Positions 37,900-39,926 of a stretch of 41,005 nt of DNA are shown here, piece after piece (positions within the stretch are counted from its first letter, which is position 1; each line of letters opens with the position of its first letter). Made by a program: the position numbers and the translations under genes. Source of the stretch: Candidatus Omnitrophota bacterium (GTDB taxonomy: Bacteria > Omnitrophota > Gorgyraeia > Gygaellales > Profunditerraquicolaceae); the NCBI GenBank assembly GCA_016212045.1, contig JACRHO010000114.1:1-41005 (forward strand), given 5' to 3'. The notes beneath the pieces are model-generated. The model saw only the letters and a program-made list of their open reading frames with translations. It did no database searches and was not told where the DNA came from.

Positions 37900-38943
37900 C
37901 TAAAATGGGCCCTTAAACTCAACCTCTTCTATTTTTAATTTTGTATTCGGCCGCCAATGTTTTTTGCCCGGACGGCAAATCTGATACGCTTTCATGGCTA
38001 TGCTTTGAGCATTTGGATAAAAATACTTTTCTAGCGCGGGCGTAGTAGGACAAGTAGTATGGGCAAAGCCCATGCGCTGGGCAACGAATCCTTTTAGCTT
38101 ACTCTCAACCAGCAGCCGACTGATTATCTCTGCGCCTAGACCACAGGGAACCCAGGCATTATCTACGATAATCAACCTACCTGTTTTCTTGACTGATCTG
38201 GCAATTGTATCTATGTCCAAGGGGGCCAAACTTACAGGATCGATTACCTCTGCTCTTATGCCTGTTTCCTTGAATAAATAAATACTAGCCCTTAGACATT
38301 CAATCGCCATTTGAGAAATTCCTACCAAGGTAATATCTCGCCCCTTGGAAAGAATGCGGGCCTTACCAAAAGCCGTGGTATAGGGCTTAGCAGGGACATA
38401 ACTTTTCTGATAATACAAAAGTCTATGTTCTATAAAGATAACCGGATCATTATCCCTGATGGCATTAATCAGGCATCCCTTGGCATCATAAGGCGTGGAA
38501 GGAGCAATAATCTTTAATCCGGGGATATTCATAAATAAAGGATATATACTCTGGGAATGTTGAGGCCCCTGCCCCCAACTTTTACCGATAATAGAACGGA
38601 TGACAATGGGCACGGATACGCTTCCTCCAAACATATAACGCATCTTAGCAACCATATTTACTAATTGATTCATCGCCAAAAGCATAAAATCCATCCGGAT
38701 ATGGATATGTATCGGCCGCAATCCAGCAAGGGCAGCACCTATTGCTACACCGGTCATCGCATCCTCTGAAAGAGGAGTATCAAAAACCCGCGTAGGCCCG
38801 AATTTAGCCGCCAGGCCCTTGGTTGTCCCCAGAATAGCCTTGGGATCATCTACGCCTTGGCCTAAAACAATTACTGAAGGATCAATTGACATCTCCTGAT
38901 CAGTTGCTTCCCTGACTGCCTCTGGATAAGTTAAAATCCGCAT
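37900..38943 (-). CDS. TPP-dependent 2-oxoacid dehydrogenase E1 component, beta subunit (transketolase-like pyrimidine-binding plus C-terminal domains)
   Basis: Motifs: YPEAVREA...DPSVIVLGQGV, RVFDTPLSEDAMTGVAIGAALAGLRPI, GPQHSQS, PVIFIEH. 347 aa, typical of E1-beta. Confidence 0.85.
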   Translation of the reverse strand: MRILTYPEAVREATDQEMSIDPSVIVLGQGVDDPKAILGTTKGLAAKFGPTRVFDTPLSEDAMTGVAIGAALAGLRPIHIHIRMDFMLLAMNQLVNMVAKMRYMFGGSVSVPIVIRSIIGKSWGQGPQHSQSIYPLFMNIPGLKIIAPSTPYDAKGCLINAIRDNDPVIFIEHRLLYYQKSYVPAKPYTTAFGKARILSKGRDITLVGISQMAIECLRASIYLFKETGIRAEVIDPVSLAPLDIDTIARSVKKTGRLIIVDNAWVPCGLGAEIISRLLVESKLKGFVAQRMGFAHTTCPTTPALEKYFYPNAQSIAMKAYQICRPGKKHWRPNTKLKIEEVEFKGPF

Positions 38944-39926
38944 TATAATGATTTTGCAAAAACGTCCTGATAAATTTTCTCTTTTGAGGGAAAAGGGCTT
39001 TTCTCGGCAAAGGAGAATGCCTCTTCTATCTCTACCTGAACCTTGGACTCTATTCTTTCCCTAGTCGCTGTACTTAAAAGTAAGCCTATTTCTTTTAATG
39101 GATCATTCTTTTTCCAACAAGAAACCTCATCTTCGCTGCGGTATCCTAAGTCAAAATCGTCATTAGGCCCAACGTGTTCTTTCCAGCGACAGGTAAGACA
39201 CTCTAAAAATGCAGGCCCCTTGCCCTGTCTTATCTTGGCAATATATTTATTAGCGGCTCTATAAATTTTAAATATATCGCCATCTCCTATCCTTTCCGAC
39301 GGCATCCCGTACGTCCTGGCGCGTATAAAGATGTTGTCGGAGTGATGGCGTTTTAAATGGTGCGAATGAATCGCGTAGGTATTATTTTCGCAGATAAATA
39401 ATATCGGTAATTTCTTAAGGGCGGCAAAGTTAAGGCTTTCGTGAAAAGCACCTTCGTCAACTGCGCCATCCCCAAAAAAAGCCGCTACCAAAGAATTGGA
39501 TTTTCTGTATCTTAGAGCATAGGCGTAACCGGTGGCCACGGGAATCATTGTACCTACGATTGCCGATGCTCCCATTATCCCGTGATTAGTATCAATAAGG
39601 TGCATCGAGCCACCTTTGCCTTTGGCACAACCTGTAACCTTGCCATAAAGTTCGGCGATCATCTTTTTCAAATCGCCTCCTTTGGCAAGATACATCGCAT
39701 GGCCCCGGTAAGTCCCGAATACCTTATCCTTAAGTCTTAGCGCTTCGCAGATACCCACAGAAACAGCTTCTTGGCCTATAGATAAATGAACCGGGCTTTT
39801 AATCTTGTCTGTAGGATAAATTCGGGCTATTTCTTCTTCGACTTTACGAATCCTATAAAGCGACCTATAGAATCTTTCCGTAAGCCCTAAGTTAATTTTG
39901 GATATCTTACTCATTTGTCTTGCCAT
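38943..39926 (-). CDS. TPP-dependent 2-oxoacid dehydrogenase E1 component, alpha subunit
   Basis: Motifs: [32 protein letters not shown], and the TPP-binding motif [31 protein letters not shown] at 39381..39473. A 1-nt overlap with the beta subunit gene. Confidence 0.85.
   Translation of the reverse strand: [327 protein letters not shown]

Follow-up and report, generated by a model that had tools for sequence, protein, structure and literature searches.

The ThDP enzymes published as adding a two-carbon branch to a sugar are those of the AviB1/B2 type, from actinomycete antibiotic pathways, and those of the YerE type, from LPS biosynthesis (PMC4425429, PMC4753412, PMC10338323, PMC9306805). 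AviB1/AviB2 (avilamycin), Pau11/Pau12 (paulomycin) and EvdU5/EvdS3 (everninomicin) are PDH-E1-like pairs that have been assigned to the formation of a two-carbon branch at C4; this role rests on genetics, was still described as hypothesised in 2023, and in vitro reconstitution has been reported for none of these enzymes (PMC4425429, PMC4753412, PMC10338323). As Pau11/12 and AviB1/B2 are only 34–37% identical, the AviB “family” is a loose one (PMC4425429, PMC4753412, PMC10338323). YerE of Yersinia pseudotuberculosis is a single-chain flavoprotein of the acetolactate synthase (ALS) type (PMC4425429, PMC4753412, PMC10338323), which transfers a pyruvate-derived C2 unit to CDP-3,6-dideoxy-4-keto-glucose (PMC9306805). 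YerE, ErwE and MyGE share a chemistry in LPS synthesis, in which a ThDP-bound acyl anion from a 2-oxo acid is added to the C4 ketone of the product of a PMP-dependent 3-dehydratase, followed by ketoreduction (PMC9306805).

The closest described precedent for the remaining genes of the locus is found in C. jejuni, where enzymes of the same families make GDP-3,6-dideoxy-4-keto-heptose and GDP-3-deoxy-4-keto-heptose. The order there is GmhA/HddA/GmhB/HddC, a 4,6-dehydratase (7US5) or a C4-dehydrogenase (Cj1427), a PLP/PMP-dependent C3-dehydratase and, finally, Fcl-like C4-reductases (PMC10680097). The enzyme families and the logic of these GDP-6-deoxy-, 3,6-dideoxy- and 3-deoxy-heptose pathways are common to the cassette described below. 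The 20 C. jejuni enzymes listed in the abstract of that paper include no ThDP enzyme and no radical SAM enzyme, so that an E1 pair and a class-B radical SAM enzyme are additions for which it offers no counterpart (PMC10680097).

The E1 pair lies in a 41,005-nucleotide stretch of DNA from a Candidatus Omnitrophota bacterium, the whole of which is referred to here as the window; all features given below with coordinates lie on its minus strand. The E1-alpha-like ThDP (PP-domain) subunit (38943..39926) has 327 residues, of which 23–314 match Pfam E1_dh (2.7e-64). The E1-beta-like subunit (37900..38943) has 347 residues and consists of a Pyr domain and a C-terminal domain (Transket_pyr, 1.5e-32; Transketolase_C, 1.3e-25). 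This is the domain composition of the alpha2beta2 E1 superfamily, and both subunits match solved E1 structures with E values of 1e-47 to 1e-65. The ThDP/Mg-binding motif GDG-X26-NN is encoded within E1-alpha at 39381..39473, a segment that translates into 31 residues beginning with GDG and ending with NN, and GGSMHL corresponds to residues 105–110 of the same translation. The preliminary description of this DNA had noted full E1-alpha and E1-beta signatures, and the reading frames and the ThDP motif are located exactly as it gave them. Alignments with 1W85/3DUF and 1NI4 show that the equivalents of beta-Glu59, beta-His128 and alpha-His271 (G. stearothermophilus numbering; His263 in the human enzyme) are retained. 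The first is the cofactor-activating glutamate and the second an active-site histidine, both found in the window E1-beta, while the third is the histidine of WKEHVGP in E1-alpha. The roles of these residues, as well as the location of PSBD binding on the two-fold axis, have been described for the G. stearothermophilus E1 (PMC2663715). The window pair is a complete E1-alpha/E1-beta in which the ThDP motif and the catalytic residues are both intact.

The two subunit genes overlap by 1 nt (position 38943) and are translationally coupled. E1-alpha shares 20 nt with an Fcl-like gene (39907..40845), and a Gmd-like gene (36880..37872) lies downstream of E1-beta after a gap of 27 nt. The fcl and Gmd-like neighbours and the 20-nt overlap had been correctly described before, but the 1-nt overlap had been slightly misplaced, as it falls between the two subunits. 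Throughout the cassette, genes are tightly packed with gaps of at most 27 nt.

The fold was assessed on P0121, a fused orthologue with 62% identity, as modeled by AF2 (pLDDT 89.3, pTM 0.92). The modeled beta half superposes onto 1W85_B and 1UM9_B with a TM score of 0.94–0.95 and an rmsd of ∼2 Å, and onto E1-beta of PDH and BCKDH with TM scores of 0.93–0.95; it is 36–38% identical to solved E1s (Foldseek). The model thus predicts an E1 fold. One distinguishing feature is a family-specific C-terminal extension of E1-beta of ∼25–28 residues (37903..37986), ending in EFKGPF-COOH, which was recognized by comparison with homologues. It is found in nearly all orthologues from the type A and type B loci and in more distant cassette members, and is absent from the E2-linked E1-beta subunits of Priestia, Thermus and Ralstonia, from the Firmicutes type C proteins and from S. 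magneticus. Conservation across 74 fused homologues is 90% or more at four of its positions (F677, G679, P680 and F681), and the tail has low AF2 confidence in the single-chain model. In the G. stearothermophilus E1, the C-terminal region of the beta subunit helps to bind the PSBD at the two-fold axis.

The heterotetrameric E1s of PDH, BCKDH and acetoin dehydrogenase share the fold, the ThDP motif and the catalytic Glu/His residues with the window pair. The best-scoring named families are indeed PDH E1-alpha and E1-beta, and public annotations name the homologues “pyruvate/acetoin dehydrogenase”, as would be expected if a housekeeping or catabolic E1 had been placed by chance in a glycan locus, with its E2 and E3 encoded elsewhere. 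Neither subunit, however, reaches an equivalog or subfamily cut-off for the PDH E1 subunits in NCBIfam: E1-alpha scores 312.9 bits against TIGR03182 (cut-off 393.85) and E1-beta 275.9 bits against NF006667 (cut-off 321), and the pair falls further below TIGR03181 (196.5 against 411.35) and NF008854 (257.3 against 454). The window pair is 38–43% identical to three E2-linked E1s, compared to 56–74% to orthologues from its own cassette family. In a neighbor-joining tree, it falls in a clade apart from the E2-linked E1s, and an E1 pair from a Streptomyces natural-product locus, which is not AviB, groups with the cassette E1s. The tight clustering with housekeeping PDH or acetoin E1s, named beforehand as an outcome that would count against a sugar-branching role, is thus seen in neither the NCBIfam scores nor the tree.

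No E2 or E3 domain was detected by Pfam in any large ORF of the window, and phmmer searches of its six-frame translation with E. coli AceF and Lpd found no homologue at E ≤ 1e-3, which agrees with the earlier statement that the window lacks lipoyl E2 and E3 genes. The same searches were negative at this threshold across 86 related loci (∼1.5 Mb in total), while the queries recovered E2/E3 beside the canonical pdhAB operons of Priestia and Ralstonia. None of the 82 non-redundant related loci has E2 or E3 within ∼10 kb of the pair, and this synteny argues against such genes lying just beyond the window edge, as the preliminary description had allowed; they may still be encoded elsewhere in the genome. 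The family also differs from the dehydrogenase E1s in its EFKGPF tail and in its fusions of alpha to beta and to an NTP_transferase domain. The pair is translationally coupled to sugar genes, and the linkage to such genes, never with E2/E3 nearby, extends over more than 10 phyla. It includes CPR genomes, which to our knowledge lack PDH complexes as a rule. We conclude that the pair is neither a housekeeping PDH E1 nor an acetoin E1; that reading, to which we give next to no weight, is already largely refuted.

Orthologues (56–74% identical) are found in Omnitrophota, Nitrospirota, anammox Planctomycetes, Cyanobacteria, Verrucomicrobia, CPR and Alphaproteobacteria. The window pair is therefore no peculiarity of the window; it belongs to a conserved family of very large size that spans many phyla. 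Its partners in the 82 related loci are always GDP-sugar enzymes. A His-type DegT dehydratase, similar to the 3-dehydratases ColD and RfbH, is the commonest (63 loci); Fcl/Gmd-like SDRs occur with the pair in 64, a GHMP kinase does so in 51, and a class-B (B12) radical SAM gene accompanies it in at least 37, often translationally coupled to the E1 genes. In a Firmicutes variant, the pair is accompanied by ManC, which is joined at some of these loci by Gmd and Fcl; these enzymes make GDP-4-keto sugars, which links the pair to enzymes of GDP-mannose metabolism. Natural E1-alpha-beta fusions form at least 120 clusters, and NTP_transferase-E1-alpha-E1-beta fusions also exist (P0238–P0240). These comparisons suggest a large, previously uncharacterised E1-alpha/beta clade dedicated to GDP-sugar tailoring.

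A related E2-less pair on plasmid pSGRIFU1 of Streptomyces griseofuscus adjoins a condensation-domain protein, ACPs and ketosynthases rather than sugar genes, and its beta subunit carries a similar tail, GFAGPY. It raises the question of whether the window pair might be no carboligase, delivering instead an activated acyl or glycolaldehyde unit, either to a carrier or to acylate the sugar at O or N, in the manner of the E1-like proteins of NRPS/PKS clusters, or acting simply to decarboxylate a 2-oxo acid. In enzymes of the QncN/QncL type, a C2 unit is loaded onto an ACP. The histidines used for dithiolane transfer are conserved and, since these catalytic residues of lipoyl reduction are retained, E2 dependence is possible on sequence alone. 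Against such a role, the tightly packed window cassette, with its gaps of at most 27 nt, contains no ACP, lipoyl domain, E2-like acyltransferase or condensation domain, nor is any of these conserved in any of the 82 related loci. For N-acetylation, ordinary hexapeptide-family acetyltransferases are encoded elsewhere in the window. We consider acyl supply or simple decarboxylation quite improbable.

Like the AviB-type enzymes, the window pair consists of separate E1-alpha (∼325 residues) and E1-beta (∼345 residues; Pau12 has 345 and the window subunit 347) genes, without E2/E3, in a deoxysugar cluster that would form an NDP-4-keto sugar. The reaction proposed for the AviB type, as here, is the transfer of a pyruvate-derived C2 unit onto a 4-keto sugar (PMC4425429, PMC4753412, PMC10338323). 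This likeness is one of description, and the settings differ: the AviB-type enzymes belong to actinomycete secondary metabolism and have as substrates sugars derived from TDP/UDP-hexoses or pentoses, on which they may act after glycosyl transfer, whereas the window-type pairs have a probable GDP-heptose context, would serve surface or flagellar glycans and occur in many phyla. The YerE/ErwE/MyGE chemistry resembles the route proposed below, since both would target C4 of an NDP-3,6-dideoxy-4-keto sugar, although the YerE substrate is a CDP-hexose and that of the window pair a predicted GDP-heptose. YerE is a single chain with TPP_enzyme_N/M/C domains and a FAD site, in contrast to the E1_dh and transketolase-like beta subunits seen here. 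The only YerE-type domain match of the pair is a partial one to TPP_enzyme_C, below threshold (20.1 against 21.9), and the window ORFs scanned with Pfam contain no ALS-type ThDP enzyme. The pair is thus YerE-like in its working at most, and not a member of the YerE family.

Several of the neighbouring genes resemble enzymes of GDP-heptose metabolism. The Gmd-like 4,6-dehydratase (36880..37872) has 7US5, the C. jejuni GDP-heptose dehydratase, as its best PDB match (277.8 bits, E = 1.2e-81), about twice its score with any true GDP-mannose 4,6-dehydratase (∼115–142 bits); against TIGR01472 (gmd), it scores 167, with a cut-off of 415. The GHMP kinase (33123..34115) is most similar in NCBIfam to HddA, a heptose-7-phosphate 1-kinase (145 bits, well below the cut-off of 600), and the sugar-1-phosphate nucleotidyltransferase (32396..33133) is HddC/ManC-like and probably GDP-specific (HddC 149.8 bits, mannose-1-phosphate guanylyltransferase 153 bits, both below cut-offs); homologues of the latter are the domains fused to E1-alpha-beta in P0238–P0240. 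Of the GmhA/HddA/GmhB/HddC set, the window has these HddA- and HddC-like genes only, both scoring far below cut-offs. Orthologues of the kinase (54–66% identity) adjoin GmhA and GmhB in ∼19 type B loci, and a type B SDR scores 374.7 bits against 6VO6. The 7US5 match, the HddA/HddC-like character of the kinase and nucleotidyltransferase, the GmhA and GmhB of the sister cassettes and the 6VO6 match together point to GDP-heptose as the substrate family, in place of a CDP-3,6-dideoxyhexose or an ordinary derivative of GDP-mannose. Neither the window nor the type A loci contain GmhA or GmhB, so that the heptose origin here draws on orthology and the 7US5 match.

The protein encoded at 28961..30172 resembles the PMP-dependent NDP-4-keto-sugar 3-dehydratases of the RfbH/ColD family (RfbH, 273.5 bits, below the cut-off of 423). 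As in the C. jejuni-type C3-dehydratase, a histidine replaces the Schiff-base lysine; the alignment places VAHMITTGEGG opposite AHH of the E1 dehydrase, SHH of ColD and the lysine of aminotransferases, while the three other DegT proteins of the window have lysine at this position. A CKCNTC...C motif (CxCxxC...C) corresponds in the alignment to the Cys-rich region of 3BCX, a CDP-sugar E1 dehydrase, and at the level of sequence these two features support the 3-dehydratase that had been proposed at this position. The motif is reminiscent of a [2Fe-2S] site; no gene for an E3-type reductase to accompany it was seen.

The sugar-modifying set also includes three Fcl-like SDRs. The GDP-fucose-synthase-like epimerase/reductase (39907..40845; NF047922, 452.6 bits, cut-off 500; E. 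coli GFS, 339.8 bits) lies directly upstream of E1-alpha in at least 36 related loci. SDR2 (35883..36878; Pfam Epimerase, 9.8e-47), with a GDP-fucose synthetase as its best PDB match (∼125 bits), has orthologues in 15 related loci, and SDR3 (34924..35886), assigned by domain and structure-database matches, in 13. A truncated SDR-like protein (34137..34931) lacks the N-terminal Rossmann part, matching Pfam Epimerase only over residues 44–164, and is conserved in seven loci. The B12-binding (class B) radical SAM enzyme (30169..31710; Pfam B12-binding and Radical_SAM) reaches no NCBIfam cut-off.

The reading that we favor, with a probability of roughly 0.55, is that the pair is an E2/E3-independent ThDP carboligase, which would join a C2 unit from pyruvate to a GDP-4-keto-deoxyheptose. 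The 4,6-dehydratase would give GDP-6-deoxy-4-keto-heptose and the His-type 3-dehydratase GDP-3,6-dideoxy-4-keto-heptose. E1-alpha/beta would then decarboxylate pyruvate to hydroxyethylidene-ThDP and add it to the C4 carbonyl in an acyloin-type ligation comparable to that of YerE and to the AviB1/B2 proposal, yielding a 4-C-acetyl, nine-carbon branched heptose. The three Fcl-like SDRs may reduce and/or epimerise the branched sugar, and the radical SAM enzyme may modify it further. Because the 3-dehydratase is the most constant neighbour (63 of the 82 loci), a YerE/AviB-like C2 addition to a 3-deoxy-4-keto sugar is the best-fitting mechanism. The preliminary description, which had recognized a stand-alone E1 among nucleotide-sugar genes and proposed a C2-branched deoxy sugar, holds in these respects; its CDP-hexose substrate and yersiniose-like octose probably do not, as a heptose substrate predicts a C9 sugar. 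The Fcl-like putative C4-reductases speak against the favored reading. Since C4 as a tertiary alcohol needs no C4-reductase, that reading has to give these SDRs another task, either in reducing the side chain or in making a parallel product that lacks the branch.

The same kind of carboligase could also act at another carbon of the GDP-heptose (a C6 ketone, a C7 aldehyde or C3), giving a linear or differently branched nonose. DXS is a precedent in the ThDP superfamily for ligating a pyruvate-derived C2 unit to a sugar aldehyde. It is E2-independent, as proposed for the window pair, and its PP-Pyr-C domain order is that of the fused orthologues. Still, it is only a distant relative (14–18% identity; weak Pfam and NCBIfam matches), its acceptor is an aldehyde rather than an NDP-keto sugar, and the whole-chain model of the fused orthologue matches it poorly (Foldseek TM ∼0.39, compared to 0.65–0.67 for transketolase). 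The constant partners, namely GDP-heptose formation, SDR oxidoreductases and the B12 radical SAM enzyme, would suit another carbon as well. In a few cassettes (e.g. L094), no 3-dehydratase is seen within 10 kb; the acceptor, then, need not always be 3-deoxy. On the other hand, the SDR partners are all members of the Gmd/Fcl/Cj1427-like families, which oxidise and reduce at C4, the most frequent partner is a C3-dehydratase that needs and regenerates a C4 ketone, and no C6 or C7 oxidase is evident. The known two-carbon branchings of sugars are all at C4 (PMC4425429, PMC4753412, PMC10338323, PMC9306805). Attack at another carbon is accordingly unlikely.

The donor is not fixed by anything in the sequence, and YerE homologues that use C4–C8 hydroxy-keto-acid donors exist, ErwE and MyGE being the models for a longer branch (PMC9306805). 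The window cassette, however, has neither an aldolase nor any further gene that would provide a special 2-oxo acid, none is conserved next to the pair, and among characterised proteins the highest-scoring relatives are pyruvate E1s, which makes a 2-oxo acid other than pyruvate very doubtful.

Because it recurs across many phyla, the arrangement of a stand-alone E1 pair among heptose-sugar genes probably marks an undescribed C–C bond-forming step in surface-sugar synthesis. The literature searched yielded no description of an E1-alpha/beta-type enzyme in a surface-glycan pathway, in line with the earlier remark that such a route is not established. A small GT2 (31707..32387), whose matches to AglJ, a Dol-P-hexose transferase and ArnC are weak, resembles polyprenyl/dolichyl-phosphate hexose transferases and has orthologues in seven related loci. 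A further GT2 (28276..28959) and a PMT_2-type GT-C (26999..28330), which together occupy 26999..28959, are likely transfer machinery, judging from their families. The polyprenyl-phosphate GT2 and the GT-C enzyme would pass the product to a cell-surface acceptor. Some cassettes of the family sit in flagellin glycosylation islands.

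The genes at 38943..39926 and 37900..38943 (both on the minus strand) encode a complete E1-alpha/E1-beta pair with a ThDP motif, as the preliminary description had proposed. The 327-residue alpha-like subunit covers the full E1_dh domain of Pfam (E = 2.7e-64), and the 347-residue beta-like subunit contains the Transket_pyr and Transketolase_C domains. On translation, E1-alpha carries GGSMHL, and the 31-residue translation of 39381..39473 matches exactly the ThDP motif previously placed there. Residue-level alignment to solved E1s revealed conservation of the cofactor-activating glutamate (beta-E59), beta-His128 and alpha-His271 (His263 in the human enzyme), whose roles have been described (PMC2663715). 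The motif WKEHVGP..D....GYR around the catalytic His of the alpha subunit is invariant within the family, and the pair belongs to the E1 superfamily. The two genes overlap by one base, and the upstream Fcl-like gene (39907..40845, minus strand) overlaps E1-alpha by 20 nt. They are part of a block (28276..40845) in which all intergenic gaps are 27 nt or less, within a window of ~38% G+C that forms a single long glycan locus on the minus strand.

The pair lacks the usual partners of a dehydrogenase E1. No E2 or E3 gene was found in the window, as had been claimed, either by Pfam analysis of all large ORFs or by phmmer with E. coli AceF and Lpd, and the AceF and Lpd queries identified none in 86 related loci; the same queries do detect E2 and E3 beside canonical operons. 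Both subunits miss all NCBIfam PDH cut-offs (as with 312.9 for a cut-off of 393.85 and 275.9 for one of 321), such that two tested hallmarks of a PDH-complex E1, these cut-offs and an E2/E3 encoded alongside, are absent. In a neighbor-joining tree of the concatenated subunits, which includes few canonical representatives, the cluster-embedded pairs lie apart from the E2-linked pairs of Priestia (pdhAB), Ralstonia (pdhAB) and Thermus (acoAB), with no sign of the clustering with housekeeping PDH or acetoin E1s that would have spoken against a separate role. The window pair is only 38–43% identical to these three. The nearest solved structures are ordinary PDH and BCKDH E1s, at only E = 1e-47 to 1e-65. 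We rejected a housekeeping PDH or acetoin E1 on the NCBIfam cut-offs, the tree, the synteny and the absent E2/E3, and it retains very little weight. The name “pyruvate/acetoin dehydrogenase E1” is probably wrong for thousands of database entries from glycan loci.

Searches by tblastn with the window proteins, combined with clustering of all locus ORFs, resolved two main cassette layouts. Type A, found in the window, in Omnitrophota (locus L001), Brocadia (L003), Nitrospirota (L005) and others, has the order Fcl-like, E1-alpha, E1-beta, Gmd-like, SDR2, (truncated SDR), SDR3, GHMP kinase, RfbH-like and nucleotidyltransferase (plus NUDIX). Type B, present in ~35 loci including those of cyanobacteria, Kuenenia, Verrucomicrobia and Acidobacteria, has the order SDR, nucleotidyltransferase, GmhB (f10; 168.9 bits, NCBIfam), GmhA (f13; 197–210 bits, NCBIfam), (NUDIX), GHMP kinase, Fcl-like, E1-alpha, E1-beta, DegT and B12 radical SAM. 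By simple motif and score rules applied to 82 non-redundant loci, many of them ended by contig edges, the pair has within 10 kb an Fcl/Gmd-like SDR in 64, a DegT protein with a catalytic-site His in 63, a GHMP kinase in 51 and a class-B radical SAM enzyme in 37. A Firmicutes variant (Ruminiclostridium sufflavum and relatives), with E1 ~50% identical, has the order ManC, E1-alpha, E1-beta, SDR, three FUT8-like glycosyltransferases and an APH-type kinase; some of its loci have genuine Gmd and Fcl nearby, enzymes that again belong to GDP-4-keto sugar synthesis. The truncated SDR-like protein of the window (34137..34931, minus strand; 264 residues) matches Pfam Epimerase over residues 44–164 only and is missing the N-terminal nucleotide-binding part, and the same position is kept in 7 related loci.

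A search with concatenated alpha and beta sequences identified natural E1-alpha–E1-beta fusions in at least 120 clusters, of ~680 residues. Three further clusters (P0238–P0240; ~956–969 residues) are triple fusions with a sugar-1-phosphate nucleotidyltransferase ahead of E1-alpha and E1-beta. In one locus (L094), the fusion (10001..12871) precedes genes for B12 radical SAM, NTP-transferase, GHMP kinase, SIS (GmhA-like), HAD (GmhB-like), flagellin and FleQ. Glycan genes and fleQ/fleSR/fliEF flank the fused E1, radical SAM, NTP-transferase and kinase of Thalassotalea sp. G2M2-11, and the Brocadia cassette comes after flgK, flagellin, fliW and csrA. These three positions are typical of flagellin glycosylation genes. 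L094 also holds an HldE-like gene (PfkB plus CTP_transf_like) and a split transketolase.

The family is widespread. At 66–75% identity, the database clusters number in the hundreds, with sources that include Omnitrophota, Brocadiales and Nitrospirota. When one genome was scanned per species, 80 loci of 45–71% identity were recovered, their lineages being Cloacimonadota, Nitrospirota, Planctomycetota (including Kuenenia), Omnitrophota, Cyanobacteria, Verrucomicrobiota, Acidobacteriota, Chloroflexota, Legionellales, Alphaproteobacteria and CPR lineages; cyanobacterial carriers of related loci include the isolate Nodosilinea nodulosa PCC 7104. Plasmids of Azospirillum ramasamyi and A. lipoferum encode an SDR, E1-alpha, E1-beta and a ColD-like DegT; an HddC-GmhB fusion and GT41/TPR proteins are encoded nearby. 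Plasmid pDMC1 of Solidesulfovibrio magneticus RS-1 carries GT2, GT2, radical SAM, NUDIX, kinase, E1-alpha, E1-beta, Fcl, DegT, SDR, NTP-transferase and PMT-like GT genes. A Candidatus Poribacteria chromosome (OZ242351.1; L016 and L017) has two E1 cassettes ~0.5 Mb apart, one pair preceded by an Fcl-like gene and the other by a Gmd-like gene. An E2-less pair on Streptomyces griseofuscus pSGRIFU1 (L089, 13995..16041), which shares 46% and 41% identity with the pair of the window, adjoins a condensation-domain protein, ACPs and ketosynthases, with no sugar genes beside it. This natural-product setting suggests that related stand-alone E1 pairs have also been recruited to non-sugar pathways.

The most informative neighbor is the RfbH/ColD-like DegT protein at 28961..30172 (minus strand). 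The position of the Schiff-base Lys is occupied by His (AH[IM] or AHH) in this protein, in 13 type A orthologues and in 36 of 36 type B DegT proteins, a substitution also seen in ColD and in the E1 dehydrase of CDP-sugars. The other three DegT proteins of the window have Lys at this position. An ordinary aminotransferase was ruled out for 28961..30172 by the replacement of the catalytic Lys. Type A proteins also contain a conserved CxCxxC...C, which in alignment falls on the Cys-rich region of this dehydrase, and those of type B are without the Cys motif and ColD-like in appearance. The His and the Cys motif agree with the earlier assignment of 28961..30172 as an E1-type 3-dehydratase, which we retain as the predicted function.

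The likely substrate is a GDP-heptose. The best or near-best NCBIfam families of the window kinase and nucleotidyltransferase are HddA and HddC. The type B SDR scores 374.7 bits against PDB entries 6VO6/6VO8, which we take to be C. jejuni Cj1427, a GDP-heptose C4-dehydrogenase. Three other SDRs of the window are relatives of GDP-fucose synthase. According to PMC10680097, that family supplies the C4-reductases of Campylobacter heptose pathways, and C. jejuni enzymes of the same families make GDP-6-deoxy-4-keto-heptose and GDP-3,6-dideoxy-4-keto-heptose and, in vitro, GDP-3-deoxy-4-keto-heptose. Neither gmhA nor gmhB was found in the window. A CDP-hexose of the yersiniose type, to which the preliminary description had pointed, and plain GDP-mannose were both dropped for the window in favor of GDP-heptose, given the HddA/HddC-like genes and the GmhA and GmhB of type B. 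Together, the C. jejuni precedents and the His-type DegT neighbor place the E1 pair beside machinery for 3-deoxy-4-keto GDP-heptoses, which are chemically the same kind of acceptor as the YerE substrate, CDP-3,6-dideoxy-4-keto-glucose (PMC9306805). Unlike the window locus, the C. jejuni pathway has no ThDP-dependent member among the 20 enzymes in the abstract of PMC10680097.

Across these loci, an intact ThDP E1 pair without E2 or E3 is linked to, and sometimes fused with, GDP-sugar enzymes making 4-keto, mostly 3-deoxy, heptoses. We propose, with a probability of about 55%, that E1-alpha/beta is a carboligase that transfers the two-carbon unit of pyruvate to the C4 ketone of a GDP-deoxyheptose, followed by SDR and radical SAM tailoring. 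The pair would decarboxylate pyruvate to the hydroxyethylidene-ThDP carbanion, which would attack the C4 ketone of GDP-3,6-dideoxy-4-keto-heptose (GDP-3-deoxy-4-keto-heptose in type B) and yield a 4-C-acetyl C9 sugar. By analogy with YerF and Pau7, the Fcl-like SDRs may reduce and/or epimerise this product, and a class-B radical SAM enzyme would then methylate or rearrange it. The polyprenyl-phosphate GT2 and PMT_2-type GT-C proteins could provide lipid-phosphate-sugar export and transfer outside the cytoplasm. We consider the same enzyme type acting with other regiochemistry unlikely. Another 2-oxo acid as donor, or an acyl-donor or decarboxylase role for the pair, each seems only slightly probable. 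A sugar-derived alpha-keto acid (6-keto-hepturonate) was dropped as substrate because no C7 oxidase is present.

Only two routes of two-carbon sugar branching are described in the literature (PMC4425429, PMC4753412, PMC10338323, PMC9306805): a PDH-like AviB1/AviB2 type (together with Pau11/12 and EvdU5/S3) for antibiotics of actinomycetes, and the acetolactate synthase (ALS)-like YerE in LPS. E1-type branching enzymes were still “hypothesised” as of 2023; they have so far been proposed for a few actinomycete antibiotics only and never reconstituted. The window family is closest to AviB1/B2 in enzyme type, as judged from published descriptions, and to YerE in pathway logic; its pathway embedding is GDP-heptose-based and Campylobacter-like. 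The earlier view that such a route is not established in surface polysaccharide biosynthesis holds insofar as we found no published E1 pair in O-antigen, capsule, flagellin-glycosylation or heptose contexts in the literature, and needs amendment as to the substrate. If the carboligase reading is correct, ThDP E1-alpha/beta enzymes would be a common, phylum-spanning route from GDP-heptose to C9 branched sugars destined for LPS, S-layer and flagellin glycans. The family also offers a genomic marker with which to find uncharacterized surface sugars of anammox and magnetotactic bacteria, cyanobacteria, Azospirillum and CPR. The natural single-chain fusions, with substrates obtained through the published C. 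jejuni enzymes, offer a route to the first biochemical proof of E1-type C–C ligation on sugars.

A more specific reading, which we regard as improbable, is that the module (GDP-heptose formation, C4 oxidation, PMP 3-dehydratase, E1-alpha/beta and class-B radical SAM) builds nine-carbon sugars that, like caryose, are carbocyclic or rearranged in some other way. Caryose, the 4,8-cyclo-3,9-dideoxy-nonose of Burkholderia caryophylli LPS, can formally be drawn as a 3-deoxyheptose carrying a pyruvate-derived C2 unit at C4 and a second, C7–C8 bond; a 2022 review (PMC9092360) gave its biosynthetic origin as unknown. In this scheme, the C4–C8 bond would come from E1-alpha/beta and closure of the cyclopentane ring from the radical SAM enzyme. 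The type B module contains the parts for this: heptose synthesis, C4 oxidation without 6-deoxygenation, 3-dehydratase, E1 pair and radical SAM enzyme. With the Azospirillum beta subunit as query, all of the 120 listed matches were alphaproteobacterial relatives (lowest identity 73%), and Burkholderia was absent among 25 listed plasmid records, which included Azospirillum, Solidesulfovibrio and Streptomyces. The family is a testable candidate for making caryose-like sugars; if the caryose reading is true, these would be no Burkholderia caryophylli curiosity but would occur widely, in flagellin, S-layer and LPS glycans of many phyla.

E1-beta has ~347 residues in nearly all members, ~22 more than that of G. 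stearothermophilus. The C-terminal extension (37903..37986, minus strand) terminates, with almost no variation, in [EQ]F[KR]GPF-COOH and is kept in types A and B, Azospirillum and more distant cassette members (related loci L001–L086 and L088). It is missing in the E2-linked controls, the Firmicutes variant and S. magneticus; the E2-less E1-beta from the NRPS/PKS-type cluster of Streptomyces griseofuscus ends in GFAGPY. The C-termini of E1-beta contribute to the site on E1 that binds E2's peripheral-subunit-binding domain (PSBD), and the extension therefore probably alters this site. The PSBD sits on the two-fold axis of E1 (PMC2663715). An AF2 model of a natural fusion has a confident E1 core (pLDDT 89.3, pTM 0.92), with low confidence for the last ~10 residues; the pLDDT of the tail is ~41–68. 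Foldseek matched the model to the E1-beta fold (TM 0.93–0.95), with the whole chain arranged like transketolase.

The window encodes four class-B (B12-binding) radical SAM proteins (6815..8209, 10145..11566, 17532..19097 and 30169..31710, minus strand), none of which reaches any NCBIfam cut-off. Four such genes in one glycan locus are unusual for a surface-polysaccharide cluster and suggest several sugar C-methylations or rearrangements. The label “HpnJ-like ring-contraction enzymes” is unjustified, as these are generic class B proteins for which BchE, HpnJ and ApyD score about equally, far below every cut-off. The Omnitrophota locus L001 has four B12 radical SAM genes in a row and, downstream, a fifth Radical_SAM protein with a weak B12-binding match.

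Elsewhere in the window, the region 1520..3506 (minus strand) has a WbuX-type N-acetyl sugar amidotransferase gene (218.8 bits against a cut-off of 203.2) that shares 11 nt with a carbon-nitrogen hydrolase-family gene, a hint that another part of the glycan may contain an acetamidino sugar. A GFO/IDH/MocA oxidoreductase (UDP-GlcNAc 3-dehydrogenase-like) is fused to a NeuD/PglB-like hexapeptide acetyltransferase (15201..16835, minus strand), with Lys-type DegT aminotransferases nearby (19094..20236 and 21346..22461); this set looks like a WbpB/E/D-style diacetamido-sugar branch. In 24570..28959 and 31707..32387 (minus strand), two GT2 proteins of ~226 residues resemble polyprenyl/dolichyl-phosphate hexose transferases and are accompanied by two PMT_2-type GT-C membrane glycosyltransferases, the same set as that beside the E1 cassette of S. 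magneticus pDMC1. The final 48 codons of a gene extending beyond the right window edge (40858..41001, minus strand) have no match in the related loci. A 636-residue ORF (8219..10129, minus strand) has no Pfam or NCBIfam match, and similar unannotated genes of 590–760 residues are present in the Omnitrophota and Nitrospirota loci L001 and L005.
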